A stretch of 64,000 nucleotides of DNA from Candidatus Omnitrophota bacterium (GTDB taxonomy: Bacteria; Omnitrophota; Gorgyraeia; Gygaellales; Profunditerraquicolaceae), in contig JAPLLX010000004.1 in NCBI GenBank assembly GCA_026387335.1, positions 189,485-253,484 of the forward strand. Direction: 5' to 3'. Every line of letters starts with the position of its first letter. Positions within the stretch are counted from its first letter, which is position 1. The notes under the pieces were generated by a model, which did no database searches, was not told the origin of the DNA, and saw only the letters and a list, made by a program, of their open reading frames with translations. Both the position numbers and the translations under genes were made by a program. Positions 9,001-43,248 of this stretch are shown here, one piece after another.

Positions 9001-12000
9001 CATTTTTTCTGCTGTATCCAACATCTTCGCGAAAGAAACCATGGCATGGCCAGCTCCCTGAATCTCAACTTGTTCGTAATTAAGAGGAATTTCGACATTC
9101 TCTGGTCTTGATGTATCACGTACCCTGGCATTATGAATCACAACATCGGCAATAGCCTGTAAGCTGTTGGCAACGCGTAAATCATGCGCGCGGCCGCTGG
9201 GATTAAGCGGGATTATAACCCACTTATTACGTTCGGCATCAAAAGCAGTAAGTTTATCTAAGCCGGTAACTTCTGCTCTGGCCACCATAGACGCTTTCAA
9301 CGCAGCTACGAGACGCTCTCCTTCAGGAGTTTTCCTCAGTGCATCTAAATCCAATCTTTCTTGCTCTAATTTTTCTCCCGCGCTATACCTTAAAAATGCT
9401 TCGATTAACGCATCGTTACCGGCAGGATCAACTATAGTTTCTCCGTCTTTATCTCTGCTGCGGGTAATCTCGTATTTATCATCTAAACTTTTTAAGGAAA
9501 GTTCGCCATTAAGTGTTTCTGTTAAGAACTTGTGCGCCCTTTCAACTAAGGCTTTTTGAGAATCAAATTCTTCTTTGCTTATTTTGTCAAATCCATCGCT
9601 AATTTGAAGAGAAGGATTATCCAAATAATCCGTATTGGTAAGCACCGCTTTATCTAATAATTCTGTCAGGGCTTTATCGTGCGCGGATAATTGCTCTCTG
9701 GGCATTTCACGTAAACCCATTAGATACTGTAAATCGTGTTCGGATACAATAACCGCACTTTTATCCGCAAAATTTATAGCCGGTTGGTCGCTATCTTTAA
9801 CTCTCCAGCGGACTATACGGTCTGCATCTACAATTGATTTCGCGAAAGCATTTCCTTTCTCGGCTGCCCTTCTTACATCACCCATAGTTTTATCGTAAAC
9901 CTGATCAGCATGTGTATCGCTTTGCTCAACAACAACTAACATTTTTGCTTTAGGACCATAGGTACCGTTTTGTATAAGCCCTAACTCGGCAATAATACCG
10001 GCGGTACTCTTGCCTGCTGAAGGAGGAGCAAAAATTGATAAGACTAAAGGTTTAACAGAACCAGCGACATAGCGGGCTCCCAAAACCATTTTTTCAAGCA
10101 TATTAGCCTGATCTTTATCCTTAACTCCTCCATATATATTTATTACCGGGTCTGCAGCTACATTATAATAATCTGACTTTATGCGCGTTTCCGCAGCCCG
10201 CTTAATTTCAGGAGTAACTTCAAAACTATTAACCCTTCTGCCCAAGAAACCATCTCTATAAAATACCTTGCTACCTTCTTTAGCATAAGCAACCTGTCCT
10301 ACAATAAGAGAGTCAATCTTCCCTGTAGCTGTAACTTCTGCAGCTTTATCTACCGGAATTATACGCTCTGAGGCGCCTGGTTTCATCCAATCAGGACGAA
10401 CATTTGACTTAGCCTCTTCCGGAGAAATTATAGTAGCGCGGCCGCGCTTAGTGAGCATCTCTGTTATTCCGCCAAAAATAGAACGCTCGTTTTTACTCAT
10501 TACAGGCGCAGCTGCAGGAACCCTAAAGAATCCTGCCCACTGTATAAACTCACTTTCAGGTGTACTGAATACGGCGCGGTCTTTAGGTGTTAAACCATTA
10601 CCATCAATTAAATTGCTTAAGGAGGCTAAAGAATATTTACCTGTATTACCAAAATAATTTACGGATTCTTTTAATCCAGTAACTACGCCGGGCATAAAAA
10701 CGCCTAAAGACCACGCATGATTTAAGGTTTCATTGGAGAACGGCTTTTGAATACTTAACGCTGCATTCTCACTTATCGAAAGTTTTTCAGAAGCCCTTGT
10801 TTGTAGAATACCTATCGCGGGAGCCATCCAGACACCAGAACGCGGGCCATAAACAAAACTGGATAATAATTCTGTCTGTCCTTGCTTAGAAGAGAATAAA
10901 TCTACATACTCACCTTTTACAATATTATTACTCGCATCTCTCTTCTCTATGGCAAACCAGGGCACGGATGGTTTCCCGTCTATGGCATGCTCCATATTAA
11001 CAAGGGCGCCACGCCATAAAGCGCCACTGACAGTAAATGACGGGCTAACATATAACCATGTTAAAGCGCCTCTGACAGAAGAATTAAATAACTTGGTCGG
11101 AACGGAATACAGAGCCTGTAAAGAAAAATCGCGTTCAGCCATATACCCGGCTCTTGAGGTAGGAGAAAATATATTCTTGGTTGTTCCCAGATAAGAAGCA
11201 GCTAACGTGCCAATTGCCGCTCCACCAAAGACACTTGCTACGGCCTGTCCAAAAGTATAATTATTTCCAGACCTATACGCGTCTAAAGAATCATGGGTAA
11301 GCTTAATCCCTGCTCCGGTAATAGCCCCATACTCTGCCCTCGCCAAATTTAAACCTGCTGGCGTAGCAGCGGGAAGACCTTTTATTCCTAACCCGATCAG
11401 GCCTCCGGTAAGCACATTAACCCAAGTATAGCTACTCTGAATATTATCTAAGAGATAACCTTCCCCAGACATTGTTTTTAGCCCAGTGGAAAGTAACGGT
11501 AGGCTGACTGCTCCTAAGGCAAAAGAGGTACCATAACGGACTATACTGCTTTCAGTATTAATTCTAAGCGCTGTACTCAAATTATTAATAGTATTTTTTA
11601 TAATTCCGCCATTAGCTACTAACGCGCCTGCGCCAGTCAAAGCTAAACCAAACGCAGCGCCATCACGCAAACCTTCTCCGTAGATACCAAGCCCTTCTCC
11701 AAAACTTAATGCCCTTGCCGTACCGGTTTCATTTAATCCCACAAGATTACCAATAACAGCAGTAGTTAGATTTATCTGGCCCCATAGAGGAGCTTGAGTT
11801 CCCATCGCATATCCAACCTTGGCTAAAAATGGACTGGCCAAAGTAGCCCCTTCGACAATCAAAGATGAGAGAACCTTTGACGCTACAGGAGTAGCTAATC
11901 CAGCAATGGCAAGCAAAGCATTTGTTTCTCGCGGTAGAAATTCACCAGTTGTGCACAGAGAAACAACGTTTGGTACTACTAAGGTAACTACTTCGGAAAT

Positions 12001-15000
12001 CGTATATGGATTTGCTAATAAATTTATAGCGGCTTTCCCTGCTTGACTCTCAACTCCAAATCTTGCGGCTAAACGCGAACCTAAAGAAGGGGCAATTTCT
12101 TTTGCTGTAGCTACTACACCTCTCCCTAAAGAACCTACTGGATAACCCAACATAGCCCAGAATAATGCATCCTTTGCCAGATCTCCCCCGGATGCCTGTA
12201 TCTCGCCGTTAAGCAACTGGTCTCTTTGTTTAATAAGGTTATCGGCTTTCTCCCATAAACGGTTTCTCCAATAATTTGGTTCTGCCCCTAGCCATTCATT
12301 CGGTTTATCTATAAGATAAGCTAAAGGCGCGCCTAATATATCTATCATTGCAGCATACCCGCTGGAGCCCGCTTTAAGATAATTCTTAATTTTACCCTCA
12401 GAGGTATCCTCTAGGGGAATTGAAATTCCGGCAATACTAAGCTTACCTTTAAATTCTTCTCCTTCAATGGCTTTATTGAGATTGTTGATAGCGGTATTTA
12501 ATTTTTCTCCATTCACACCGGGATCAAACCTGGAATCGCCTGTATCATTATGAATTTTTGTGATTCGTTGTAGCACTGCGCTTCTTTGCGCGTCACTATG
12601 CTGTTGATAAATATCCGCTACCCATTTTTCAAAACCTGCAAAATTAGAAGGTAAGGTAGCTATTTTACCCGAACGATAATCATCAACCCATTGATTCCAA
12701 CCCAATTTTTTAGCATTTTCTTGATAATACTCAGAATAGGATGTAGTATTTTCTTTGTCTGTTTTATTTAAAGCGTCAACGCGGGTTAATAATTCGGCTT
12801 TCTTAATAACTGCCTTTTGTTCATCATTAAGCTTACCCTTAACATAAACTTCTTCAGTTAATCCTGCTTTTTCAGCTTCTGCTTTATTAAACCCCTTAAG
12901 CTGGCTGATATCGTAAAACCCAATTTTCTTAGAATAAGTGCGCATATACTCAGCCAGGCCTGTTTTGCTGTTCAAATCAGCTATATCTGATTTAATTTCA
13001 TCTTCTGTTGCCCATCCTTTATTTACCAGGTCTTGCATAAAGGCTATCCTTACTTTATCATCCTGGGGACGAGCCTTAAAATTAAGGAAGGCGTCAATTG
13101 CAATCGCGCTATTCAAAAGTTTGCTTGTGCCATTAAAATCTTCTTTATCAAGCGATTTCCGCGCTTTCTCTAAAAGGCCTTTAATTTTTTCGTCTTTTTT
13201 AGTCTCGTTTGATTTTTCTAATTCCTTCAGCGGCTTCTCTAAATTCTCCCTCATTTCCTTCTTTGTAACAAATTTCTCTTTGCCATCCTCCTTCGTAAAA
13301 TAAACTTCTTCACTAGTCTTTAACGAATAGTTCTTTTGGCTCATCTCATTCTTAGAAGGCTGGCCGTTAGGAAAATCAATCGTTCCCGAAGCCTTAGTGG
13401 ATTGAAGATAAGTTATACTGGCTACTCCTTTTTTCTCATCCGTGCTTAAAGACCAGGGCATCTTAAATCCCTTAGGAGCGGCATAAGCTAAACCTTCAGC
13501 CTGAGTAATAACCTTGTATTGCACATCGCCGTTAATACCCACGCCCAACATTACCGGAACGGAACTCTCTTCAGAAGGAAGAATAACTGCCCCTAATCTA
13601 TCTTTGACTTTTACCACCTGGGTTTCGCCTTTTTCGCCCAAGACAAAATATTTATCTTTATTCAGCGCGGCATCGGTTTTCTGACCCCAAATGCCATCTG
13701 TTTTTACTTTTAAGTCCGCCTGTAATTTCTCTACCGCTGTTTTATACAGCGGATCTTTATCGCCTTTTATAACAGCGGCTTTATCTAAATAACCTTTCTC
13801 CTTTAAAATACCTACCTTATCCTTAAAGGCTTTATCAGCTGTTGACCCTTCCATACCTTCATTCATAAACGGCAAGGCCTTAATTAAAAGAGCTGGGCGC
13901 GCTATGCCGTCTTCCTTATTCACCAGCAGCTCTTGGCCGATAATCGGCGATGTGCCTACCCCTGCTTTTCCTCCGTCTTTCACATTAGTCAAAGCCCAGA
14001 TAACTTGATGCCTGTCCTGCAATTCAGAATCAAATAAAATCTTATCTTTCGGAGTAACCCAATTCCATACGCCGGCCTTATCCTTTTCCTGAACCGCGTA
14101 ATTAGCGAAAGATGAAACGATATGCAGAACGCCGGCTTTGCTGCCTACTCCATTAATAATAATTCTATCTTTATTCTTGGTATCTATTTTGCTACCCGGC
14201 TCAGAATCTTTCAGGTAAGGTTTGGCGAGAAAAGTTTCGGTGAGTTGGCCAACGCCTTCAATTTCACCATTTGCCTTAAAGGAAATCTCCGCCTCTTTTT
14301 GATTATAGTTAGCGCCTATCCAATGAAGGTTTACATGGCTAATCTTGCCGTCCGGGCCTAAATTTATTGCCACATTACGAAGCAGACTCATACCATCAGG
14401 GAAATCTAAACCCGCGACTATAACTCTCCCCTTAGAAACATCTACATTATCGTAAATGACTACTTTACTTGCAGGGTCAATAAGGTTATATTTCTTGGTT
14501 TTTTGGTCTTGCACTAATTTATAAACGCCTTCATATGTCTCCACAGTCTTATCTTTATTAATCTCATAGGATTTGGAGGTCCTGGCGCCGCTATACTTTA
14601 TCCCCTGCGCTTCGGTAACCAGGTCAAATTTAAATTTATCCTCCTTATCAAAATCCATACCCGTCAATATTCCGCTTTTACTAAAATATACCGGGCCGGT
14701 TGGATTTTGCTGATAACGTTCATGATCTATTTCATAAGTAAAGTCTCTGGATAATTTAGGGAGAGACTCGGAATTATTTTGAACTCTTAGTTCGTTTTTA
14801 CTGTCATCCCAGGGAACAGAAATAATATCTTTTCCCGCCTGATCCTTAGCCACAGTTACTTTAACCTTTTTCTCCTTATCATTATCATTAATAAGGTAGC
14901 TCTCTTTTACTCCGTCTTTAGTTGATTCTTGTAATTTCCAACCTTCTAGAGGACCATTTTTCTCATATAAAGAAGCGCTATTCTCAAGGCCACGGGATAG

Positions 15001-18000
15001 TGAAGGATTAACTGCGCCGGAAAAAACTAAAGGAGCTGGACCGCCCCAATGCTGGATAGGCCTGATATTAAATTCTTTGCTCGTTGCAGCGTCTGTTCCC
15101 TTGAACGCTAACTGGCCGACTAAAGGTGAGTTGCCTTTTAAAACTACTTCGGAGGTATCTTTACCTGTTTGCCTGGCTACTTCCCAATCAAGACTATGCC
15201 CCTTTTGCACAGCATTCCCAAAGATTACCTCATCGGGAATTTCATTTCCGATTCTATACGCAGCCCAAGAACTTATAATATAGCTAACGCCGTTACTGAG
15301 AAACTCTTTAAGTTTTTCGGCTGAGTTTATATTCTTGATTTCCCCTATTAGTTTAGCCTGAAGCCGGGAGTCTTTTATCTTCCCGCCTTTTGCATCAGTA
15401 AACTCTCCTTTTTCTGCTGCTTCTATTAATACAGTCTTACCTGTTTCAAAATCTTTGTCTATCTTCTTTATTAACTCCGGGTTAAAGTATAATCTTTCTG
15501 TTATTTTCTCCTTGAGATATGTTTCCGAAAGCGTACTATCATTTACGCCAATTGTAAGAATACCTTTATTCTCTTTGTCGCCTCCCGGCCTTATGCCTAA
15601 AGAATTAAAAGTAATGCTTCCGTCTTTATGCACAGAGTAAGAAGTAACCAGGCGCGTATTCCTATCTCCTTCTGCAATCGGAGTATTATCGCCTTTTGAG
15701 TTATCTCGGACCATCTCAAATCCGTTTTCTCCCGACCATTTTGCTCCTTTGGCAAAATTAAGGCTGCTTAAATCCAACCCTACAATATTACCATTCTGGT
15801 GATCAATGTTGGCCACCCAGCCGCCAAAACCCCTGGCAGTAGTCATGGGTATTTTGTTAGAATCTTGAAAAGAACCTGCTCTTGTTAACGCTACCATATC
15901 AGTCTGCGGAGATTCTTTCCCCTCGCCGCCGGCTTTGGGCGTTGGTATAATTAAGTCTCCGTTTACAAGCAAAACAGGGTTGCCGCCAAACTCACCTAAG
16001 TCATAAATAGTGCCTTTTGTCTTTGCAACTATTGATTTATTATCAAACAGTGCGCTGAGAACGTCTTGCTTAGGGACTGGAGTCATAAGAGATTCGCCAC
16101 CTAGTTTACTTTCTAGAAAGTTATCAGCAGGCTTAGAAGACATAATTTCCTGTCTATAACGCTGCTCATATTCTCCCCGGGCATAAGAAAGCTTGGCATC
16201 AAAAGTCTGCTTGCCAAGCACATCAAAGGTGTATAGATAATCTAACTGTCTTAATGTAAGGTCGTTCTCAACGCCGTTTACATCTTTAATTTTTTCAAAC
16301 TTCTTGGTGTCGCCGGGATTAATTATTTCTTTTATAAAAGCTCCGTCGCCGTAAAAATTACCGTCGCCAATGGTAATCTCTCCGGATTGTTCTTTTCGAT
16401 GTCCCAGATACGTGCTGCTATCAAAACGCACGCCCGTATATTTGTCGGCGTAATAAGCCTGGCCTTTTATATTGTCTTTACCCCTAATTGCAAATTCCGG
16501 CACTTTCCATTGAGCGCCCTTGGCATAGTTTAAAGAATTAGGATCTAAACTTAACTGGCCGTCTTTATTATGCACCAAAACCCCTACGGTCCCGGTCATC
16601 TTGTTAACTTCGGCTGACGCGGATTCAACATTCACTACCACACCAGACCCAGGCCCATAAAGGCTCTTAGCATAATCTAAGAATGGCGATCCTGCGTTCT
16701 TTACAACCCAAGTTAACCACTTTTCTGTTTCAGTTGCTTCAACACCCGCCGCCGGCCCAGAATTTTGTAGAGATGTTTTAAATTTTTTGGCCCTATCAAG
16801 ATAATCAGCAGCAGGATAGCTATCTTCCGACAGCTTTTTATTTCCTGCTTGATCTCGGGGTTTAGAATTGGCATTAGTATTATAAGCACTAGTCTCTGGA
16901 AGCAGCAGCTTTAAGCTAACGCTCTCATCGATATTAGAGCTAATGGATATATTCTTCTTTATGAAATCCTTATTTGCTTGTGAGTCATATTTATTAGAAA
17001 GCGGGTTACCGTTAAATTCACTGCGATACCCTGAAACATACTCCACAATATCCTTTTCGTTAAAATATTGATATAAGCCTGTATCTCCCCATAAAACTGC
17101 CGGAACCATCTTGATGTTAATAGTAGAAGTAATGCCTGATTCCTTAGCCTTGATTACCGTAGGAAAGAAGGTCGGATAGATTATGTCCCTGCCTAAGCCG
17201 ACCAGGTTATTTACTGAGGCAAAATGCAAGGTAGACTTGGCGTAATTAACTAAAGAATAAGAGGCGGAAGGTAAAAGCGAGCTGAGGTTCCCATCATCAA
17301 TGAACTTACCCCAGTCAGTATAACCTTTTTGTTTCATTAAATAATCGGCATTGGCTTTGAAATCAGAGGTTCCGGCAAGCTGGGCAATCTTTTCTATATA
17401 TTGAATTTCAGACCAGCCGCCTGCGCCTTTGGTGTATACCGGAGAGGTGCCGCCTAAAGAAACATAATTGGTGGCGAATTCTTCAAATCGCTTATTAAAT
17501 AATCTTCCTGCATACCCTGCCCAAGATTTTTCGCCTAATTCTGCAGTTGATTTATTCGCAGCGATAATTGTGCCGGCTGCAGAATAAAGAGTGGCTGTTC
17601 CTAACCAGTTAACCCCCTCCATTTGTAATCGGGTCAGGCCCCATTTATTCTTATCTGTAACTTTATCAAAATCTCCGCCTAAAGCATTCAGCCCGGCTGA
17701 AACGCCGCCGGATAGAAGGCCGTTAAAAGCCGCTTGATCCCAAGTCAGTTTGTTGGCATTTGCTCCGGCTATGCCTCCTAAGGGCTCGCCTAATAAACGG
17801 CTATAATTAGGATGTTTCTTAAGCTCGCTGCCAAACACTCCCTGAGAAGCAGCATATTCAACAGCCAAACCTACGCCCTGAGAGATTAAAGAACCTTTCA
17901 TATCCTGTAGGGCATATAGAGCGCCCTGATAAGCTGTCGAAGGAGCCACGTAGGCGGAAGATTTTCCTCCTTCTTGAATAATATTTCCGGATATATTCTT

Positions 18001-19551
18001 TGTCACATCCATACCACCATCTCTGTAACTACCAAACGCGTAATAATGCGTCTCCGTCTTTATATTACTAATATCGTCAGGCCCGTTTTCATCTATTAAT
18101 GTTGCTACTTCTCTCGGTGTTACTTCAGTCTTGGCTTGATGTCCCATATCGAAAACAGTGCCAGAGGCAGCACCCATTGCGATGCCAAACGCTTCATAAC
18201 CTATAACGTTCCCGGCGAGATTAGCAAACTGCCGGCCAACATAAGGATTATTCTTAAATAAACTGGTATCTTTCAGCGCCTCATAGGCAAATACGCTGGC
18301 GCCGGCTTTGGCAGCGCCTAAAAGTGTTCCTCTTAAGGCACCCATCCCAATTGTAGAAAGAGTACTGTTTGGCTGGTAATAAGCAGTGGTTGCTCCGGAT
18401 AAGGCGGCGATTGTCACAGTACTTAATATTCCGGCGGAAGTAGGATCCATCCCGAAGTTCTGCACTGCTACGTTAGTCGCTGCCTGGGCAATTTGGCTAT
18501 AGAGCATTGCCTGGCCAAAAGAAGTAACTCCTTTACTTAATGCCTCGCCAGCACTAAGAGCAGATGCTGTTCCGGCTACTGAGAAATAGGAGTAGGCGGC
18601 TGGTATGGCGACAGAAGCAACCGTAATCCCTAACCCCAGCCACATATCCCCGTCAGAAGGTTCTTTAAATAAAGCAGAGACATCGGCATAGCCTTGCTTG
18701 TTGGATCTGGCGCCTAAGACTTGTTTGGCTTCGGCATCAGTCAAAGGGACAGTCCCCTGCGGGGACAGTCCCTGTATTAAGGCATAACCGGAAAAATCTT
18801 TAAGGAATTTCTCTATTGGCAGGAATTCTTCTTTATGTTCATCTAAGAAGTAAATTTTTTCACCGCTAATTTTAGTGATTAAAACATAGTGGTCGCCGTT
18901 TAGGTGAGCAATGAAAGGAGTTAAATCTGCGGATAACTCGGATAACTTAACCGGGTAAAGTTTAAGGCCGAAAAACTCTGAAGCTTTGGATAAGGCGTAA
19001 AGGGAATTTTTAATAACTTTGGGATTACCTTCCGGCTTGACTACGTCATTTAAGATATCTATGGTTAAGGCAAAAACCGCGATATCCTGCTCTTCTACCT
19101 TAACCCCTTTATAGCTTAAGTAGTCATAAAGCGACTTGGTACCGCATGGTTTACACACCAGCCAGTTAAACAACTCATCTATCCTCTGATTGGACATTTT
19201 CAGTGGTTTATCCAGGGTTATGGTCAGATTCTCTGAAACTTTTATAGCAGTTATGGGTTTATTGGCTATATCTTTGAGGATACTTTTTACTGCCTGAGGA
19301 ATGTTAAGATTTTGGACATTTTTAAGGTAATTTGGGGCAAATACGTTGTTGGAAGGAAGGCCAATAGCGGGTTTATTCCAGATTACGCGCCAGTCATATT
19401 CTACTGCCTGAGCTGCCTGTTCAGGCAAGAAGACTACGGCAACAACAAAAGCTGCCACGCGGATCCAAGGCTTAAAACTGGAGTGGAACTTTTCCTTGGC
19501 CGCTTCTTTGGTAACTGCCTTGTCTTCTATATTGGCTCTTGGCTTTATCAT
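1..19551 (-). CDS. Giant multi-domain membrane/surface protein, 5' part of the gene in window (start ATG about 19549-19551; ORF continues past position 1; at least 6,516 aa in window). Domains seen: N-terminal signal anchor + C39-like Cys peptidase, multi-TM Gly/Ala block, P-loop kinase-like domain, second papain-like segment, Gly-rich linker, LysM between TM helices, K/E-rich charged region, further TM helices
   Basis: Manual reverse-complement translation in the phase whose + triplets start at positions congruent to 1 mod 3. No TTA/CTA/TCA (minus-strand stops) were found across lines 1-1620 or in spot checks at 7.0, 9.7-10.2, 12.0, 15.0, 17.5 and 18.7-19.55 kb, while in-frame + strand TAA/TGA/TAG are frequent, the signature of antisense. 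The ORF track lists no minus ORF of 60 aa or more between 1505 and 19551, consistent with one ORF lacking an in-window stop. N-terminus reads MIKPRANIEDKAVTKEAAKEKFHSSFKPWIRVAAFVVAVVFLPEQAAQA... then ...NWLVCKPCGTKSLYDYLSYKGV...TPFIAHLNGDHYVLITKISGEKIYFLDE (C39-like Cys/His pattern). Confidence 0.85.
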   Translation of the reverse strand, partial: MIKPRANIEDKAVTKEAAKEKFHSSFKPWIRVAAFVVAVVFLPEQAAQAVEYDWRVIWNKPAIGLPSNNVFAPNYLKNVQNLNIPQAVKSILKDIANKPITAIKVSENLTITLDKPLKMSNQRIDELFNWLVCKPCGTKSLYDYLSYKGVKVEEQDIAVFALTIDILNDVVKPEGNPKVIKNSLYALSKASEFFGLKLYPVKLSELSADLTPFIAHLNGDHYVLITKISGEKIYFLDEHKEEFLPIEKFLKDFSGYALIQGLSPQGTVPLTDAEAKQVLGARSNKQGYADVSALFKEPSDGDMWLGLGITVASVAIPAAYSYFSVAGTASALSAGEALSKGVTSFGQAMLYSQIAQAATNVAVQNFGMDPTSAGILSTVTIAALSGATTAYYQPNSTLSTIGMGALRGTLLGAAKAGASVFAYEALKDTSLFKNNPYVGRQFANLAGNVIGYEAFGIAMGAASGTVFDMGHQAKTEVTPREVATLIDENGPDDISNIKTETHYYAFGSYRDGGMDVTKNISGNIIQEGGKSSAYVAPSTAYQGALYALQDMKGSLISQGVGLAVEYAASQGVFGSELKKHPNYSRLLGEPLGGIAGANANKLTWDQAAFNGLLSGGVSAGLNALGGDFDKVTDKNKWGLTRLQMEGVNWLGTATLYSAAGTIIAANKSTAELGEKSWAGYAGRLFNKRFEEFATNYVSLGGTSPVYTKGAGGWSEIQYIEKIAQLAGTSDFKANADYLMKQKGYTDWGKFIDDGNLSSLLPSASYSLVNYAKSTLHFASVNNLVGLGRDIIYPTFFPTVIKAKESGITSTINIKMVPAVLWGDTGLYQYFNEKDIVEYVSGYRSEFNGNPLSNKYDSQANKDFIKKNISISSNIDESVSLKLLLPETSAYNTNANSKPRDQAGNKKLSEDSYPAADYLDRAKKFKTSLQNSGPAAGVEATETEKWLTWVVKNAGSPFLDYAKSLYGPGSGVVVNVESASAEVNKMTGTVGVLVHNKDGQLSLDPNSLNYAKGAQWKVPEFAIRGKDNIKGQAYYADKYTGVRFDSSTYLGHRKEQSGEITIGDGNFYGDGAFIKEIINPGDTKKFEKIKDVNGVENDLTLRQLDYLYTFDVLGKQTFDAKLSYARGEYEQRYRQEIMSSKPADNFLESKLGGESLMTPVPKQDVLSALFDNKSIVAKTKGTIYDLGEFGGNPVLLVNGDLIIPTPKAGGEGKESPQTDMVALTRAGSFQDSNKIPMTTARGFGGWVANIDHQNGNIVGLDLSSLNFAKGAKWSGENGFEMVRDNSKGDNTPIAEGDRNTRLVTSYSVHKDGSITFNSLGIRPGGDKENKGILTIGVNDSTLSETYLKEKITERLYFNPELIKKIDKDFETGKTVLIEAAEKGEFTDAKGGKIKDSRLQAKLIGEIKNINSAEKLKEFLSNGVSYIISSWAAYRIGNEIPDEVIFGNAVQKGHSLDWEVARQTGKDTSEVVLKGNSPLVGQLAFKGTDAATSKEFNIRPIQHWGGPAPLVFSGAVNPSLSRGLENSASLYEKNGPLEGWKLQESTKDGVKESYLINDNDKEKKVKVTVAKDQAGKDIISVPWDDSKNELRVQNNSESLPKLSRDFTYEIDHERYQQNPTGPVYFSKSGILTGMDFDKEDKFKFDLVTEAQGIKYSGARTSKSYEINKDKTVETYEGVYKLVQDQKTKKYNLIDPASKVVIYDNVDVSKGRVIVAGLDFPDGMSLLRNVAINLGPDGKISHVNLHWIGANYNQKEAEISFKANGEIEGVGQLTETFLAKPYLKDSEPGSKIDTKNKDRIIINGVGSKAGVLHIVSSFANYAVQEKDKAGVWNWVTPKDKILFDSELQDRHQVIWALTNVKDGGKAGVGTSPIIGQELLVNKEDGIARPALLIKALPFMNEGMEGSTADKAFKDKVGILKEKGYLDKAAVIKGDKDPLYKTAVEKLQADLKVKTDGIWGQKTDAALNKDKYFVLGEKGETQVVKVKDRLGAVILPSEESSVPVMLGVGINGDVQYKVITQAEGLAYAAPKGFKMPWSLSTDEKKGVASITYLQSTKASGTIDFPNGQPSKNEMSQKNYSLKTSEEVYFTKEDGKEKFVTKKEMRENLEKPLKELEKSNETKKDEKIKGLLEKARKSLDKEDFNGTSKLLNSAIAIDAFLNFKARPQDDKVRIAFMQDLVNKGWATEDEIKSDIADLNSKTGLAEYMRTYSKKIGFYDISQLKGFNKAEAEKAGLTEEVYVKGKLNDEQKAVIKKAELLTRVDALNKTDKENTTSYSEYYQENAKKLGWNQWVDDYRSGKIATLPSNFAGFEKWVADIYQQHSDAQRSAVLQRITKIHNDTGDSRFDPGVNGEKLNTAINNLNKAIEGEEFKGKLSIAGISIPLEDTSEGKIKNYLKAGSSGYAAMIDILGAPLAYLIDKPNEWLGAEPNYWRNRLWEKADNLIKQRDQLLNGEIQASGGDLAKDALFWAMLGYPVGSLGRGVVATAKEIAPSLGSRLAARFGVESQAGKAAINLLANPYTISEVVTLVVPNVVSLCTTGEFLPRETNALLAIAGLATPVASKVLSSLIVEGATLASPFLAKVGYAMGTQAPLWGQINLTTAVIGNLVGLNETGTARALSFGEGLGIYGEGLRDGAAFGLALTGAGALVANGGIIKNTINNLSTALRINTESSIVRYGTSFALGAVSLPLLSTGLKTMSGEGYLLDNIQSSYTWVNVLTGGLIGLGIKGLPAATPAGLNLARAEYGAITGAGIKLTHDSLDAYRSGNNYTFGQAVASVFGGAAIGTLAASYLGTTKNIFSPTSRAGYMAERDFSLQALYSVPTKLFNSSVRGALTWLYVSPSFTVSGALWRGALVNMEHAIDGKPSVPWFAIEKRDASNNIVKGEYVDLFSSKQGQTELLSSFVYGPRSGVWMAPAIGILQTRASEKLSISENAALSIQKPFSNETLNHAWSLGVFMPGVVTGLKESVNYFGNTGKYSLASLSNLIDGNGLTPKDRAVFSTPESEFIQWAGFFRVPAAAPVMSKNERSIFGGITEMLTKRGRATIISPEEAKSNVRPDWMKPGASERIIPVDKAAEVTATGKIDSLIVGQVAYAKEGSKVFYRDGFLGRRVNSFEVTPEIKRAAETRIKSDYYNVAADPVINIYGGVKDKDQANMLEKMVLGARYVAGSVKPLVLSIFAPPSAGKSTAGIIAELGLIQNGTYGPKAKMLVVVEQSDTHADQVYDKTMGDVRRAAEKGNAFAKSIVDADRIVRWRVKDSDQPAINFADKSAVIVSEHDLQYLMGLREMPREQLSAHDKALTELLDKAVLTNTDYLDNPSLQISDGFDKISKEEFDSQKALVERAHKFLTETLNGELSLKSLDDKYEITRSRDKDGETIVDPAGNDALIEAFLRYSAGEKLEQERLDLDALRKTPEGERLVAALKASMVARAEVTGLDKLTAFDAERNKWVIIPLNPSGRAHDLRVANSLQAIADVVIHNARVRDTSRPENVEIPLNYEQVEIQGAGHAMVSFAKMLDTAEKMGAVATVLFAGAMTDRQKDTMRIVFGMDSVGEVSKPILDANLNVVGVNNVNNNAIFELGSKETSNKGKDVTIYVDTQKSEQHGDSQLSIGDFSAFYKDNTRFILDQRGIWQMVEVGRELKDAKPVSEVIKNSGRNNSPIEYVTEQIASGKGVKVLISRPNTYGIDINGVSDKAVLVAIADSKSELLPIFQGSRRLRPVSGSDFDSVDRVLIVRDLSGVDVKSLEGVKELEKLFGKNQDQADKQDLLHKERDLIRDAKFKINLLLGSLLGPKAMEKIAQVNRLEQGNDSVRQLQNVRGQADLTVEHLDTERDHGMKFLRDQWGQGDLRELYPEKPKTAQEMKAKAIVDEFILFRDAYSKIEKALRAELKNEYEGKPAYKQLTPEQVRAIFAKEFTGKDYPKFTSANMEYGVTVRGEKRGVPSAVPSEELGPVTFENFAKGQPALAEKFNNLPAETQALFVRGGYMVGRGGLNLAMQTVQLWDERERKEVNVFLNRIGLPELALPEADILITPEQSFDLAVNLAQRGYIDVSNPYRGVDSIVRVATLTSLAADKLAGTAFTPTEVERLQLGLDNPVEFLTRNLQKGNSSLESALIKFNAQRHSSIFKDKRTMGGLQQVAVAMGKTQSLIDLMPLVLPLGPTQVEAYRQLNLSGISSKVLGRLSIADYLFLNSDPLARGQLFATSTNAATRQAADLMNTFMQTQGVVKRDVLRRFVDNPQQEAQRLGLPPKEIENVAAAFRELLNSTSGKTVQYALVVETLKNKNLVNSKDIHTGLRKLGINPQFEYGLRFNDAENALVAQRTSQGQENVKFEDILINPQEHENAFFRLLGPDIASRLLGNGSSLFTRQQALEFINNIQSANPDDARLDNSLKILNGLTDDASLYLVFRALQPAQTFIAEQEFKAQGSTAVEKEMGSNWYGKDKGYEGVQVEIGPSGFLRGPDKTKNTSAQVYEPSVGEKNYTIKADSVDNFVITKDAQGKLSIRLNLAGHYNFGRGAHEAFHIAVKNIGSNPSNIVILSPNGRDIDAEATVTAQQNYANLLAEMGTLENRELSESDFSISELGVNEGLTRFLSMRALINSLNSAEDTERQNLLATESTTLGGFTGHANKVLKTEQTVDKVLNDITELFKKGELLGKIHSDVTEEKSLVDLKLNDLLEKMKKQMDTAAPVEEKAAVNDNTGGSSSISGPNAKVQILAGALSALTGARIVSSSIAETGAALEYIGKIVNRLFGAVARMLGGQKPDQTTSPLERRSPMPLPVAGTVVSGVGASSSVTRALTALDLSPASLLYAGKVIQFNTIATPNPVVGTGTGVAPPASSPTNSDSKFVGVKDIRAYKLGVIEANEFKSLAGSQSANKETSGSIRATSSPLNSGVFVSGIPTKTSSSPANNSTITDLEKAIKLLNRLLGQDYFRNNKDDRMMLEGLRQKDPTAYGTVLRAIQDRDFEKARSEMYGLIRSAVKGIMNVEDNIPHLKAVLMRWFNDSYFEDTTVNSITDEDITNRYVIGLSIIANYVKTAQLHPELQEGLSEEIIRELFNGIANGNIVAAVQKIVRKEIQELEENNERTHKKAKEELAGFFSKMQGVVKEEVRGLSTKVNDQGEEIVNLRKAIDDGDKSVLRAVEGIIQGFDGRLRIAEGKRGIQPADCLPGSFYTVDSVLAAEIEEAERKLGRGLLLNELNQIAKGRLQYYLLSPKIIESMDSNTLGNLNLIVVQSGHAFLVRGKYANGDLMVTEYNNKGEVTETRPVSIESVALYNGKIVSIIHWNNVSAVENYKKENNLDDKDIREIKKEEMDEVSGVIGYIQELNGSSGGGSAQGGTGTGAAAGNGGAAAGPKGTGKGKGGFGEGPEAANFNLTNGASEAYGIVDWLNIISEDRKRVSGLAPPTVILSSSSAVNIKNILSNISNAYLTAGIFLFVSLVLPIQSFAATAANNILTVGKGDTWGHIVLEYFGKSGMKLWGEKGRAIETWRQVKGANQSYSAMDHINAGQQIDVSKILTVPGVPPAPQAPKGEESILSKILDYFTTNPKMIWAIAIVAIIILGLIAVKIYLNHRAEKVRKAAEEAAKLATQQEAERKAAEERDRLAKETVTKKVTEDAKKTPEAADKANVEGIKDEKIVDEKGHVSAKDNAGVQAEVTAENKQDPVNATASKDLFSTANDLLILGNSEYDAEEYFKALATYQKVEGILIKYSLEVKDQLTNAVISEESKAALIKQALELNNKLYEIEVKIAGCSSKITSEATNFANQINPGKANGGSSPVRELPVSANIPIETVTVSSSPINKLVTTSFLGTLRNILEKGRSYFRLEASITAQPKETGVGVTNLSLAPPLARIAASVSNFLIQMYRVIIGGGKNGKPNVEISGRNEKDRIRVFEGRISRSSLKSYSNELRGQGHYRTETPSLRLLEARFVKPVSNHAKGYNGLSPPCAALIAILLNSAVVISLLLVLSFTNSDINNLINLTRPLAFSVAGELAAYVVVNGGAGALLQGLTPLVAAITTIIEGGVPCVLSMLMILGLITLLTSPRTTLLLPQLVRTPAVISGSSSLTMLWELSTRATAVPIVGRRSSALRASSSVSRLAMQGDVFPSTKSTARTTKNRDGSVREPSLTVGSSPVFSSPIKKSSKTYWLKIVTVVALLVISAFTAIYHIHGRHERIQPTIEALRKADPAIFTKEDKVFKDFKSLVKYLMEIARVNRNLELGADYCYLGKDGWHLKIGAIGEEDGVVIKNIPGSILLHFHTSNGELSLEDLYSTLNRQSIIVSPDEVLVFKDEHKEKHNKFRGIFERAGNQAEALRRGKKVSEEKYLGKFMDLLKEHTSEEDHNGIYQDIFVQAGGEYLETIENIRVALGLKIIKFTWTSSSPAASSSVNVTYNSQGRLVKYASGEAITETIDGIEVITITKQASEVLAETARIKKNLEEFDFLGITKLSAEARKAEASKALGLEPDASKKTIKTMYRGLARLFHSDTSPVKVDGIYIQTLNSIKETLEESSSSSANKALDMAILNIIE

Positions 19552-19715
19552 TTTATTTTTATATTACTATATACATAAAATGCAAAATAAAAGTTCCCCT
19601 TTACCCCATTACTCTTTTTAGCTTGCGAGTGAGAGTCTTTCATATTTTGTTTTATAAAGCGTTTGTAAAATCCCTTACTAAGCTTCTAAAAAGAAAAACC
19701 GAACTGTCAAATTTC

Positions 19716-19825
19716 CGTCGGTAATTCGGCAGCCCGGCTATCCTTTGATAGGCACTATTTTTGTTTCTTTGGGACCCGCGGCTTTGCGCCCCCGGATTTC
19801 TCCGGGTTTGCCATTTCGTTACTTA
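19716..19825 (-). ncRNA. c-di-GMP-I (GEMM-I) riboswitch aptamer in the 5' leader of the giant gene
   Basis: Minus-strand sequence ...AAAUGGCAAACC-CGGA-GAAA-UCCG-GGGGCGCAAAGCC-GCGGGUCCC...GGAUAGCCGGGCUGCCGAAUUACCGACGG matches the hallmark GEMM-I elements as I recall them from V. cholerae Vc2: GGCAAACC, a P1b hairpin with GAAA tetraloop, GGGACGCAAAGCC, and the 3' ...GUUACCGAUGG closing segment. A U-rich tract (UUUUUCUUUUU, + coords about 19690-19705) follows as a possible expression platform. Confidence 0.7.
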
Positions 19826-19841
19826 CCTCAACTACAAGCAG

Positions 19842-19869
19842 AGTATAACACATAGCTCGTCGCTGTCAA
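19842..19869 (-). promoter_or_regulatory. Sigma70-type promoter for the giant gene and riboswitch (-35 TTGACA, 16-nt spacer, -10 TATACT)
   Basis: Minus-strand read: TTGACAgcgacgagctatgtgtTATACT. + strand tgtcaa at 19864-19869 and agtata at 19842-19847. Predicted TSS about 19834, immediately upstream of the riboswitch. Confidence 0.55.
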
Positions 19870-20056
19870 GCTAAAAAAGGGCTTATTTTGGTACCGCTTT
19901 CAATATCAAAAACCGGCCTAATTATGGTTAAAAAAGTGGGCTAAAATCGCACTTTTTGAAGCGTACTTAATCCCTAAAAACGCGATTATTTTGCCATTTT
20001 AATGGCTCGTAATGACGAAAATGAGTAGTTTGCGCAACGCCACAAATATTAGTAAT

Positions 20057-20121
20057 TAGACTGGACATTTTTAGGTGATTCTCGATATAGAATGGACATT
20101 AGGAAGTACTAGATTGGACAA
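20057..20121 (+). repeat. Three direct repeats of TAGAnTGGACA(T/A)T with 30- and 22-bp spacing; candidate transcription-factor binding sites
   Basis: tagactggacattttt, tagaatggacattagg, tagattggacaatcta seen in sequence. A fourth copy, agattggacattt, lies at about 32896-32908 next to the promoter of the 31003..32883 gene. Confidence 0.5.
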
Positions 20122-20199
20122 TCTAATGAGATATAAATGCTCATTTATTTATGTTAGACTTTATGATTTATAACGTCAATTATAGTAGAAAGTAGATTA

Positions 20200-20567
20200 A
20201 TGACTAATATCCAAGCCCCAATGACGAATAAAATCCCAATGACTCAAATTCCAAGTAAGAAATACGACCTGCGAGAAAGAACTGCTAAGTCGAGAATAGC
20301 CTGACCAGGCCATTAATAAGTCAACTGGTCAGGGCTGGCACAAGCGTAGGAGCTAATTATTGCGAAGCAGATGATTCTACAACAAAGAAAGATTTCGTGT
20401 ACAAGATTGGTACTTGTAGAAGAGAATCTAAAGAATCAAAATACTGGTTAAGAATACTCACGGCAGCAGCACCTTCTCTAGCGGAAGAAACAAAACCATT
20501 GTTATCTGAAGCTCAAGAACTAAATTTAATATTTTCTGCGATTATTAATAGATCTCAAAATAAATAA
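20200..20567 (+). pseudogene. Four-helix-bundle protein (TIGR02436, 23S rRNA intervening-sequence protein family), disrupted by a frameshift and internal deletion
   Basis: ORF1 (20200..20304) reads MTNIQAPMTNKIPMTQIPSKKYDLRERTAKSRIA* and ORF2 (frame -1, ending 20567) reads ...LISQLVRAGTSVGANYCEADDSTTKKDFVYKIGTCRRESKESKYWLRILTAAAPSLAEETKPLLSEAQELNLIFSAIINRSQNK*. ORF2 matches the family core (QLLRSGTSIGAN...SKKDF..K...E..ET.YWLELL...ELVKILTSII). About 12 codons expected between TAKF and ISQL are missing, and all three frames carry stops at 20286-20304. Confidence 0.6.
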
Positions 20568-20628
20568 TTGTAACTTGGAATTTGGAACTTCATTCGTCAT
20601 TGGGATTTGGTGATTGGGATTTTGGGTG
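20211..20628. mobile_element. Mini-element bounded by imperfect terminal inverted repeats of about 45-55 bp (20211-20255 and 20574-20628), carrying the degraded four-helix-bundle gene. IVS-like or MITE-like
   Basis: The left arm ccaagccccaatgacgaataaaatcccaatgactcaaattccaag matches the reverse complement of the right arm (cacccaaaatcccaatcaccaaatcccaatgacgaatgaagttccaaattccaag). Shared blocks are cccaatgacgaat, aaatcccaatgac and caaattccaag. AT-rich relative to flanks. Confidence 0.5.
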
Positions 20629-20634
20629 TATTTA

Positions 20635-21849
20635 TTAAAAGCTAAGTAGGAACCTTAGGCCGCAGACTATCTCAGTGCCTTCTGCCTTATCAACACTGGG
20701 ATGAGTAACTACTTGGAGGTTGGGAGTCAGAGCCATACATCCGTTTAGATAATAGCTGTAATAGGCTTCGTACATAGTTTCAGCGCGCCAGGTTTCATCG
20801 TAGCCATTTGCTTCCCGGTAGTCATCACCAACAATAGATTGGGCTACTCCTATTCCCAGGCAGTCAAATTTACGCCCTGGAAAAGGTTCAGTAACTTGAG
20901 CGCCGCAAGACCAGAAATACTCAATATCCCTGACCTTGGGGTCAGCAACTCCGTAGCGGAAAAAGAGGGTTGCGTTCTTAGTTATTGCCTGGTCAAAACT
21001 CAAAGCAAACCCGGAATCATTCTTTTTGGTTTCGTCAGAATTAAGGTAGTCTAGCTTTTGATGATTAGTATAAAAGATAAAACGGTAATTACCCTGCAAG
21101 GAGCCGAACTTAGGGGTTAAACCGAGCTCATTGATAAAAAACGCGCTGTTGAACGCATCGCTTAAGCCTGTTTTTGTGTAACTGACCTTGGCCGTGCCTG
21201 TGCCGGACTGAAAATAGAGCCATTCGTAGGGTTCAAAATTTACCAACGCGGCTATCCCTATATAAGGAAAAGGAATAGTCGGGTTATTTACCAGCGCGCT
21301 GGATGAAAATTGCGTATCCCCGCAACCCGCGACTTCATTATAATCAAACCAATCGGACAGATTCAGTTTACCGGCGGTAAAAGTTATCTCATCTTTAAAA
21401 AGTTTCTGCTCTATATACAACGCAGGTAAATAAAACCAGGCGCTTTCGCCTGCATTATCACTAAATACTGAATAGGTAGGTAAAAACTTGTCCACGCCCT
21501 TTCCTTTATCCATCTCAAACTCGGCGAAGAGCGCTCCTCCCGGCCAAAGCTTCTGTTCAATTTCAAGATCCCAATACCAGGGGCCGCGGGACTTGCCTTC
21601 ATCGTGTTTACTCTTGATTATCGCCTGTTGAGCGTAGTTAAAAAGGAAAGCGAATCTTGTCCCGTATTTTTCGGCAAAGCTCTCCCTTTGCGCGTCAAAA
21701 TCTTTAAGCCAACTATCTACGGGGGATATTTCGACTTTCTCTTCTTCCTGCTCAGATACCTCTAAAGGTGTACGCGCTGCTTGAGAAGATGGGATGGCAA
21801 CGGATAGGGTTAAGGTGACGAGGAGAATATAAACATTATTTAAGCACAA
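20635..21849 (-). CDS. Outer-membrane beta-barrel porin (carbohydrate-porin/OprB-like); signal peptide, C-terminal ...GLRFLLSF
   Basis: ORF track translation. N-terminal signal peptide, alternating amphipathic beta-strand pattern rich in Y/F/G, C-terminal Phe typical of OMP barrels. Confidence 0.55.
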   Translation of the reverse strand: MCLNNVYILLVTLTLSVAIPSSQAARTPLEVSEQEEEKVEISPVDSWLKDFDAQRESFAEKYGTRFAFLFNYAQQAIIKSKHDEGKSRGPWYWDLEIEQKLWPGGALFAEFEMDKGKGVDKFLPTYSVFSDNAGESAWFYLPALYIEQKLFKDEITFTAGKLNLSDWFDYNEVAGCGDTQFSSSALVNNPTIPFPYIGIAALVNFEPYEWLYFQSGTGTAKVSYTKTGLSDAFNSAFFINELGLTPKFGSLQGNYRFIFYTNHQKLDYLNSDETKKNDSGFALSFDQAITKNATLFFRYGVADPKVRDIEYFWSCGAQVTEPFPGRKFDCLGIGVAQSIVGDDYREANGYDETWRAETMYEAYYSYYLNGCMALTPNLQVVTHPSVDKAEGTEIVCGLRFLLSF

Positions 21850-22255
21850 TTATATTTTCCTTCAAAAATTTCTGTATCGCCCTTAGGATTTCCTTCTTAA
21901 ATTTCGGAGGGCTCTGGGCGATCCACATCGTAAAATTATAAAGTTCCTGCGTGTCAACCTTCAGCCATTTCCTGTTTTTATGCAGGAAAACAAATAGGGC
22001 GGTCATAGCGATTCTTTTGTTCCCGTTTTGAAAAGGATGATTTTTAATCATCAGATAAAACAGAATACCGGCTTTAGCGACAAGACCGGAATAAAGAGAT
22101 TTCCCGGTAAAGGTCTGGAAAGGTGCGGCTAAAGAGCTTTCTAGGACGTTAGGGTAGCGCGTAGAAAATCCGGGTATAGGCTCATTAAAAGATAGTAATT
22201 CCTTGGCCAACCGGAAGGCAATATACTCTACTTCTTTTACATTTAATTTTTTCAT
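21836..22255 (-). CDS. Fic/Doc family toxin
   Basis: Motif HPFQNGNKRIAMTALFVFL = Fic/Doc signature HxFx(D/N)GNKR. 139 aa. Its start overlaps the stop of the upstream HTH gene. Confidence 0.8.
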   Translation of the reverse strand: MKKLNVKEVEYIAFRLAKELLSFNEPIPGFSTRYPNVLESSLAAPFQTFTGKSLYSGLVAKAGILFYLMIKNHPFQNGNKRIAMTALFVFLHKNRKWLKVDTQELYNFTMWIAQSPPKFKKEILRAIQKFLKENIIVLK

Positions 22256-22536
22256 TAATTCTTCCCTAGAAGCTTCAAAGTCTGGCCATACTCAGAGACT
22301 GTCTTTCTTACGGCAGCCTCTATTTCCCTTTTATCTTCCGCATTCAAACTCTTGCCTAGAATAGAGTCAAAATGTTTCCTGGAAATAGCGTAATTCCTAC
22401 CTATCTTTACCGCTTTAATTTCACCGCTCTTAACCTTCTTAAAAATAGCGATCCTACTTAAACCTAAAATTTTAGCCACCTGCGGAATAGTAAGGTGCTC
22501 TCTTTGTCTACTGCCGACCATCATTTTCACCTCCAA
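22255..22536 (-). CDS. HTH (excisionase/MerR-like) DNA-binding antitoxin partner of Fic/Doc
   Basis: 93 aa. LTIPQVAKILGLSRIAIFKKVKSGEIKAVKIGRNYAISRKH is an HTH_17-like motif. Translationally coupled upstream of the Doc gene. Confidence 0.65.
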   Translation of the reverse strand: MEVKMMVGSRQREHLTIPQVAKILGLSRIAIFKKVKSGEIKAVKIGRNYAISRKHFDSILGKSLNAEDKREIEAAVRKTVSEYGQTLKLLGKN

Positions 22537-32888: not shown

Positions 32889-32945
32889 CCCCAGATTGGA
32901 CATTTCCCTATACGAATAATATAGTTTATGAACCAGATTATGTCA
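32889..32945 (-). promoter_or_regulatory. Sigma70-like promoter (TTGACA-17-TATATT) for the 31003..32883 gene, with a TGGACA motif copy between -10 and the RBS
   Basis: Minus-strand read: TTGACAtaatctggttcataaacTATATTattcgtatagggaaatgtccaatctgggggttgtATG. Confidence 0.5.
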
Positions 32946-32950
32946 AGTTA

Positions 32951-32997
32951 AATAGGGACAGCGACCGTTTTTTAAACGGTCGCTGTCCCTATTAAAG
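32951..32997. repeat. Hairpin repeat family copy 1 (AATAGGGACAGCGACCGTTT-loop-AAACGGTCGCTGTCCCTATT); terminator-like, downstream of the DUF192 gene
   Basis: Perfect 20-bp stem seen in sequence. Copies 2 (33345-33410) and 3 (43186-43248) share the same stem sequence. Confidence 0.7.
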
Positions 32998-40751: not shown

Positions 40752-40771
40752 GGAATTTTATTTTAATAAAT

Positions 40772-42244: not shown

Positions 42245-42248
42245 ATAT

Positions 42249-43184: not shown

Positions 43185-43185
43185 A

Positions 43186-43248
43186 TAGGGACAGCGACCA
43201 TTTTTCAATCAGGTGACGATTAAAAAAATGGTCGCTGTCCCTATTTAT
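43186..43248. repeat. Hairpin repeat family copy 3; terminator-like after the RR-GGDEF gene
   Basis: aatagggacagcgaccattttt-caatcaggtgacgatt-aaaaaaatggtcgctgtccctattt. Confidence 0.7.

Follow-up and report, generated by a model that had tools for sequence, protein, structure and literature searches.

The stretch of DNA analysed here (64 kb of an Omnitrophota metagenome-assembled genome, hereafter the window) begins with a giant open reading frame (ORF) on the minus strand, which spans positions 1-19563, has its first Met at 19551 and continues beyond the window. The window also includes a Tad pilus locus, in which the gene for a 626-aa protein (identical to NTW18_04230) has cpaF/DUF192 on one side and a series of Flp-type pilin genes on the other. 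The latter gene, referred to below as the HTH gene for the helix-turn-helix (HTH) of its product, and the giant gene have in common a short upstream sequence element (the box), which is the subject of this analysis. The relevant features are as follows, with the boxes given in the sense of the genes.

1-19551, minus strand: giant ORF, at least 6517 codons, continuing beyond the window; taken here as the regulated target
19185-19199, minus strand: intragenic box, AAATGTCCAATCAGA (core 19187-19196), about +356 nt into the giant ORF
19724-19821, minus strand: c-di-GMP-I-GGC riboswitch (Rfam RF03167, 66.9 bits vs. a gathering score of 59)
19842-19869, minus strand: giant-gene promoter, TTGACAGCGACGAGCT..TGTTATACT, sigma-70-type (TTGACA-16-TGnTATACT)
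20057-20069, minus strand: array box 3, AATGTCCAGTCTA, 31 bp from box 2
20088-20100, minus strand: array box 2, AATGTCCATTCTA, 22 bp from box 1
20110-20122, minus strand: array box 1, ATTGTCCAATCTA, an exact match, farthest from the giant gene
31003-32883, minus strand: gene of the 626-aa candidate regulator (HTH, linker and an alpha/beta domain of about 420 aa)
32892-32904, minus strand: proximal box of the HTH gene, AATGTCCAATCTG, between the -10 element and the ribosome-binding site
32918-32946, minus strand: HTH-gene promoter, sigma-70-type (TTGACA-17-TATATT), conserved in relatives
32951-32960, minus strand: possible degenerate distal box (uncertain), TGTCCCTATT, just 5' of the HTH-gene -35

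Since the genes lie downstream on the minus strand, the TGGACA element reads TGTCCAnnCT in gene sense, the full box being the 13-nt A-W-TGTCCA-A-W-C-T-G. A motif scan of the window returned exact matches to TAGANTGGACAWT at 20057-20069, 20088-20100 and 20110-20122 of the plus strand, in the place (20057-20121) where the first-pass annotation had seen an array of three TGGACA repeats. The distance from array box 3 to the -35 of the giant-gene promoter is 198 bp, in agreement with the value of about 200 bp given there; of the spacings of 30 and 22 bp, the second was confirmed and the first is 31 bp when measured start to start. The fourth copy, which had been assigned to the HTH-gene promoter at 32896-32908 and thought to overlap the +1 position, does lie in this promoter and near +1, but at 32892-32904 (plus strand), just past the predicted +1 (roughly +6 to +20 of the transcript), where it sits immediately next to the Shine-Dalgarno GGGGG and the ATG (32883). 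This copy reads CAGATTGGACATT and has one mismatch to TAGANTGGACAWT; only the core AGAnTGGACA is common to all four. A strict scan for TGTCCA-N-W-C-W over the 64 kb found exactly five copies, all in gene sense, the fifth of which (19187-19196, within the giant ORF) was absent from the first-pass annotation.

Dinucleotide shuffles of the window gave 0.50 +/- 0.69 hits, as compared with the four observed, and none of 100 shuffles reached four. A base-composition estimate puts the 9-base core at about 0.5 chance matches in 128 kb, so that the significance of the fourth copy, judged from the window alone, is only marginal; chance is ruled out for this copy because the comparison with relatives described below is decisive. 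The related string TGGACAWT is strand-biased, with seven of its eight copies in the window on the plus strand. The possible distal box at 32951-32960 occupies the 3' arm of a terminator-like palindrome and has a mismatched core, but it sits where 44 related promoters have a box reading (T/C)GTCCAATCT. Other look-alike sites were set aside, namely a TGGACA at 19312 that is common to L016 only and another at 35563 that overlaps the cpaF start codon and does not have the CT part of the box, both of which we regard as chance occurrences, as well as TGTCCC sites, which are not of the box family and form part of a separate recurring palindrome (see below).

Metagenome contigs searched with the first 517 residues of the giant protein provided 39 related giant-gene loci, 46-96% identical. 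One to four sense boxes, usually two or three, lie upstream of the giant gene in 36 of the 38 loci with enough upstream sequence to be counted, at -380 to -1100 nt from the start codon; in total, these regions hold 91 sense boxes in 27 kb, as compared with 3 boxes on the opposite strand in the entire 243 kb. When 12 loci are aligned, they reveal a fixed order of upstream stop codon, box array, variable segment, promoter block, riboswitch, leader and start codon, and array box 1 of the window lines up with the first box column of this alignment. Among the related loci the last array box lies 156-354 nt upstream of the -35, and in about half of the loci a terminator-like hairpin is present between the array and the -35. 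Hence, given the variable distance and this hairpin, the array is not a classical promoter-proximal site. The gene upstream of the array is often tadC, the giant gene usually follows directly after tadC, and in many relatives (L006, L007, L009, L013 and L030) the tadC stop codon is followed 5-60 nt on by the array and then by the giant gene, so the phylum-general layout is Tad locus, array, giant gene. In the lineage of the window, oprB and a Fic/HTH_17 pair (20635-22536, minus strand) are inserted between tadC and the array.

A further insertion of about 510 bp (20123-20634) separates the oprB stop codon from the array in the window, and it is missing in the 96%-identical relative L003, where the array directly follows oprB. 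It carries a disrupted ORF of the four-helix-bundle (23S-rRNA-IVS) type on the plus strand, flanked by imperfect 34-nt inverted repeats (20206-20239 and 20582-20615), and looks like a small mobile insert. We also considered an antisense small RNA transcribed from the array, and rejected it as the variable region beside the array has no conserved promoter.

The giant gene has a second, independent regulatory layer. The c-di-GMP riboswitch begins directly 3' of the giant-gene promoter, in the leader, and is kept in 19 of 20 related giant-gene leaders; it is conserved together with a terminator-like expression platform. The promoter block itself is nearly invariant among relatives (GAAAGCGnTACCAAAA ... 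TTGACAGCGACGA ... TGTTATACT), spacer included. In the window, the block at 19842-19901 (minus strand; GAAAGCGgTACCAAAA...TTGACAGCGACGAgCT...TGTTATACT), which takes in the spacer and an upstream block, shows this near invariance throughout and suggests a second bound factor or an UP element.

On the side of the HTH gene, a 25-member family alignment scanned against one genome per GTDB species recovered 80 loci (33-66% identity), nearly all of them labelled Omnitrophota. TGTCCA occurs at most 200 nt from the start codon in all 68 loci with an intact 5' end. This proximal box lies between the -10 element and the ribosome-binding site in the 68 homologues and starts 5-20 nt past the -10 hexamer; most promoters read AAATGTCCAAWCTGGAGG, with TGTCCA at -19 from the ATG, and the 3' end of the box therefore runs into the Shine-Dalgarno sequence. 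A second, distal box is found in 44 loci; counted from first base to first base, it precedes the -35 hexamer by 13 or 18-19 nt in most cases. Five species (L060, L083, L091, L098 and L121) have, in addition, an inverted box within the -35/-10 spacer. Overall, 98 of the 117 boxes in 770 kb surrounding the HTH genes fall in the 250-nt sense region upstream of the HTH gene, and rearranged paralogous copies of the gene retain the box. Against background frequency, the point on which the first-pass annotation had proposed to judge the motif, the box is therefore enriched at promoters and rare elsewhere. The inverted spacer box and the proximal sense box together make a wide palindromic pair around the -10. 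As for the paralogues, two GTDB genomes (L044/L112 and L096/L099) each carry two diverged copies, for example 66% and 36% identical to the query, with the box at -19 in both.

In 42 of 50 loci, Flp-type pilin genes come next on the 3' side of the HTH gene, and cpaF lies 5' in 36 of 50. No box was found upstream of the pilin genes, the first of which is separated from the HTH gene by a promoter-like site of its own; we infer that the pilin genes may be co-regulated.

The box inside the giant gene provides evidence of a different kind. Outside the array region of the giant-gene loci there are 27 sense boxes, nearly all of them at +283 to +358 of the ORF. The peptide encoded by the intragenic box is K-M-S-N-Q in the window, and across 23 related loci plus the window it is (K/R/E)-M-S-N-Q while the DNA is always ATGTCCAATCA, with Ser always encoded by TCC and Asn always by AAT; nearby codons for Asp, Lys, Pro, Leu, Gln, Arg and Ile show no such constraint and differ at synonymous positions. 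In a sister clade of 14 loci the peptide is (I/L)-S-(K/Q/A/S), six different Ser codons are used and the box is absent. Judging from this codon choice, the intragenic box is under selection on its nucleotide sequence within a coding region, and it is not essential, as its absence from the 14-locus sister clade indicates.

On this comparative record, the TGGACA repeats are a DNA control element conserved across the phylum Omnitrophota, and the idea of the first-pass annotation that one cis-element is common to the upstream region of the giant gene and the HTH-gene promoter has held up (36 of 38 loci and 68 of 68 promoters, and rare elsewhere). The box being present at both places, a single regulator most likely controls the HTH gene as well as the giant gene. 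We favor, with moderate confidence, the hypothesis that the boxes are operators for a sequence-specific DNA-binding protein, and that its likeliest identity is the 626-aa protein with its HTH, linker and transposase-like domain. This protein is the best candidate binder because its gene has the site architecture of autoregulation in every genome examined and because the recognition helix is invariant; the invariant HTH residues (SCR and SKSSxN) match the invariance of the TGTCCA core.

Alternatively, the similarity of the boxes might be due to chance or be a compositional artefact, a view for which the expectation of about 0.5 chance matches to the 9-base core in 128 kb and the strand bias of TGGACAWT could be cited. 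The shuffle test (4 vs. 0.50 expected) and the retention of the boxes at orthologous positions among dozens of species with protein identities of no more than 33-70% refute this view, to which we assign next to no probability. It is also conceivable that the motif acts at the RNA level, so that an RNA-binding protein or a small RNA that affects translation or stability would recognize AAUGUCCAAUCUG beside the Shine-Dalgarno sequence of the 5' leader, within the giant coding region and in the 3' UTR of the upstream tad/oprB transcript. Nearly all boxes are indeed sense-oriented, the proximal box merges into the ribosome-binding site (CTGGAGG), one box lies within an ORF, and in L003-L005 and other loci the array stands between the upstream stop codon and a terminator-like hairpin and is thus probably transcribed. 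Yet the distal boxes of the HTH gene lie upstream of the -35, past the terminator of the upstream gene, and the array of the window has no adjacent upstream gene on the same strand, the 510-bp insertion intervening. Further, in three HTH-gene promoters the -10 ends only 5 nt before TGTCCA, which places the start site at or inside the box, and the inverted boxes of the five species mentioned above lie in the untranscribed -35/-10 spacer, for which reason recognition of DNA is favored over that of RNA. The spacings point the same way. Within the arrays they are 21 bp (16 cases), 29-31 bp (27 cases), 41 bp (3 cases) and 62 bp, and from distal to proximal box in the promoters they are 52-54 bp (19 cases) or 62-65 bp (16 cases); that is, they are stepped by about 10.5 bp, or roughly whole helical turns, which favors a protein operator on DNA. 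Phase coherence peaks near 10.5-10.7 bp (R = 0.73-0.77), a statistic that is only moderately selective and is to be read as indicative because the loci are related and not independent samples. We therefore consider an RNA-level role quite unlikely, and favor a protein that would sit on one face of double-stranded DNA.

If the boxes are DNA operators, they could still belong to another regulator that is encoded elsewhere, with the HTH and giant genes as its regulon, given that conservation and enrichment prove a functional site and not the identity of its binder, and that the sampling covered only loci around these two genes. We regard this as unlikely: the box is found in 68 of 68 promoters of a single gene family, rearranged paralogues included, the HTH of this family is invariant, and the neighborhood encodes no other conserved DNA-binding protein, the HTH_17/Fic pair being lineage-specific and the REC-GGDEF protein having no DNA-binding domain. 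More specifically, the OmpR-like REC-GGDEF protein (42249-43184), named by the first-pass annotation as a possible binder, did not survive closer inspection, as its only Pfam domains are Response_reg and GGDEF, with no winged-helix domain, and its orthologue in L001 likewise has Response_reg and GGDEF. A further reading takes the boxes as substrates of a still active DDE enzyme that would cleave, excise or recombine the pilin/tad segment of about 13 kb, for instance in phase variation. The predicted C-terminal fold of the 626-aa protein is closest to that of Tn5 transposase, several of its acidic residues are invariant or nearly so, as is a stretch that loosely resembles YREK, and multi-site arrays resemble the ends of Mu and Tn7. 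On the other hand, the boxes that flank the segment are direct and not inverted repeats, the locus is intact and syntenic in all relatives with no empty-site or rearranged variants at the boxes, the boxes are placed precisely relative to the -35, -10 and ribosome-binding site, as operators are, and profile-profile comparison with IS50-type transposases shows no sequence similarity. For these reasons we hold the enzymatic reading to be very unlikely, and the operator hypothesis, with the 626-aa protein as the probable binder, is the one pursued below.

A few other candidates were examined and discarded. The HTH_17 protein (22255-22536), paired with Fic, is present in this lineage only, and in many relatives tadC is followed by the array. 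Sigma-70 promoters do not account for the boxes, as TGGACA scored as a weak plus-strand -35 and has no conserved -10 partner, and neither do sigma-54 promoters (TGGCAC-N5-TTGCW), there being no conserved -12 partner and no conservation past the core in the frequency matrix of the array; the functional promoters here are of the TTGACA/TATAAT type. The boxes are also not the inverted-repeat ends of an insertion sequence (IS) around the 626-aa gene, which has no inverted copy of the box and is syntenic and low-copy.

The family of the 626-aa protein is most conserved in its N-terminal 60 residues, in which SCR and SKSSxN are invariant; next comes a linker of variable length, E/K-rich in some members and P-rich in others, which leads into a conserved domain of 420 residues. 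In the AlphaFold model (mean pLDDT 84), residues 9-53 fold into a three-helix HTH. Beyond it are a disordered segment and a helix of 88 residues, and the alpha/beta domain that follows is modelled with confidence. The top four Foldseek matches in the PDB were all Tn5 transposase (best E 2.9e-4, probability 0.97, low TM), and the modelled N-terminal HTH may resemble that of Tc3 in fold. At the sequence level, a look-up of the window's protein by its exact sequence gave no result, Pfam gave no match for the 626-aa protein, a PDB sequence-profile search matched only the low-complexity E/K linker, and alignment of the family with hhalign against Tn5 (a query 100% identical to the plasmid copies beside aph(3')-IIa) and against a 37-sequence profile of the IS50 group returned a Prob of 0.1 or less. 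Sub-threshold HMM matches were to transposase HTH families and to IS630, IS481 and IS4 models, with NCBIfam IS4_1 matched, below threshold as well, by 2 of the 25 family members. Residues D309, D355, E498, D502 and E508 are invariant or nearly invariant acidic positions, and Y489..H/R492..E498..K506 loosely resembles the IS4 YREK motif by eye only; since there is no sequence similarity to IS50-type profiles, a catalytic triad is not mappable. The gene is single- or low-copy and syntenic in the Tad locus, no terminal inverted repeats were found in the form of an inverted box downstream of it, and it is not mobile. Taken together, the predicted structure makes transposase ancestry a lead of moderate strength as opposed to demonstrated homology.

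The circuit that we propose would work as follows. One HTH would occupy each box, and, with the boxes whole helical turns apart, the monomers would lie on one face of the DNA, joined to each other through the C-terminal domain, the long variable linker spanning the 21-65 bp between boxes or looping further. At its own promoter, the protein would bind the box at about +2 to +20, often together with a box that abuts the -35, and thereby probably exert negative autoregulation. At the giant gene, the three phased boxes about 200 bp upstream and, in this clade, the intragenic box about 640 nt downstream of the start site lie on either side of a segment with the promoter, riboswitch and start codon, an arrangement that may allow a repression loop like those of lac O1/O2 or ara O2/I1. 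That is, the array would be bridged with downstream sites or with the promoter region, the linker giving the reach, and the giant gene would be controlled in this way. Expression of the giant protein would then depend on the Tad-locus regulator at initiation and on the c-di-GMP riboswitch after initiation.

FIST, HisKA/HATPase and REC-GGDEF genes (39528-43184, plus strand) adjoin the Tad locus, and loci L101, L108 and L117 apparently carry this set too, based on similar gene sizes and order. These genes are plausibly the source of the c-di-GMP sensed by the riboswitch.

A more specific and tentative extension of this model, which we consider possible but on the doubtful side, is that the 626-aa protein is an IS4/Tn5-type DDE transposase that was domesticated early in Omnitrophota and now regulates the Tad pilus and the giant protein. 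The TGTCCA boxes would, under this hypothesis, be former end sites, a synapsis-like bridging would loop out the promoter and the riboswitch, and catalytic residues may persist. If true, this would be a bacterial transcription factor that derives from a DDE transposase and controls some of the largest known genes.

Elements of the proposed circuit have counterparts in well-known systems. As in lac O1/O2/O3, gal OE/OI and ara O2/I1, operators bracket the promoter and the sites are in helical phase, and the intragenic box, like lac O2, which is located at +401, would be an auxiliary site inside a coding region that is kept by selection at the DNA level. AraC has DNA-binding domains on flexible linkers, with which it contacts half-sites arranged as direct repeats at a distance of 21 bp, and it is able to exchange one of them for a half-site farther away. 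Unlike those three systems, the boxes here are non-palindromic direct repeats, presumably each bound by a single HTH, the 626-aa protein is unrelated to LacI, GalR and AraC, and the array stands 156-354 bp from the promoter at a variable distance, and looping, in the present case, is what we infer. Direct repeats in helical register are also typical of OmpR/PhoB or LytTR boxes, and 21-22 bp is the spacing of a LytTR pair; in contrast to those, none of the nearby genes encodes a winged-helix or LytTR protein, the output domain of the REC protein is GGDEF, and spacings of 30-31, 41, 52-54 and 62-65 bp are as common as that of 21 bp.

Transposons offer the other set of parallels. As with the autoregulation of transposases at IS ends, a transposase-like protein has its putative recognition sequence in its own promoter and leader, arrays of two to four putative sites in the same orientation recall MuA L1-L3/R1-R3 and the TnsB sites of Tn7, and the predicted N-terminal HTH and catalytic-type domain may be similar to those of Tc3 and Tn5, respectively. 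Unlike transposon ends, there are no inverted terminal repeats, and the gene is low-copy, syntenic across the phylum and not mobile; unlike IS50 transposases, the protein has no similarity to IS50 profiles at the sequence level. Domesticated transposon proteins are known as regulators in eukaryotes (FHY3/FAR1 and CENP-B-like proteins) and in bacteria (the TnpB-derived TldR repressors). The present case would resemble them in that a DNA-recognition module of a mobile element controls host genes, including those for surface structures, and would differ from TldR and the others in that it would descend from a bacterial DDE transposase (IS4/Tn5-like) and that a protein, and not a guide RNA, does the recognizing, the ancestry being suggested by fold similarity of moderate strength only.

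Omnitrophota have some of the largest known genes as well as Tad pili, and a role in attaching to host cells or preying on them has been proposed for both the giant proteins and the pili. A 13-bp operator common to the promoter of the Tad-locus regulator and to the giant gene would constitute a testable, phylum-wide circuit, layered with a c-di-GMP riboswitch and with a FIST/kinase/REC-GGDEF module next door, and one accessible to experiments in vitro or in E. coli, with no need to grow Omnitrophota in culture. It may also be an instance, in bacteria, of a transposase-like protein taken over by its host for regulation. Neither PMC10066038 nor bioRxiv 10.64898/2026.06.07.730766, which deal with giant ORFs and Tad pili of Omnitrophota, mentions a regulator, a motif, a promoter or a riboswitch; in the searchable literature, the box sequence matched nothing but unrelated primers or sequences, and Omnitrophica, c-di-GMP and riboswitch in combination returned only work on ComFB receptors.

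Finally, a few minor observations concern other parts of the locus. The recurring palindrome mentioned above (AGGGACAGCGACCG...CGGTCGCTGTCCCT) is intergenic and occurs in the window at 32951-32993, at about 33397 and at 43184-43245, as well as in relatives just past the array (L003, at about 3445-3510, and L037); its core, GACAGCGAC, is also found in the giant-gene promoter, and the palindrome resembles a REP-like or shared terminator element. The Tad ATPase (33411-35570, minus strand) is a 719-aa fusion of a ParA/MinD-type (TadZ-like) N-terminus with a CpaF/T2SSE ATPase, and a fusion of the same size and domain content is present in the relative L001. The giant protein itself has a Peptidase_C39 domain at residues 183-259 (18775-19005, minus strand; E 3.2e-8), which follows a single hydrophobic segment.
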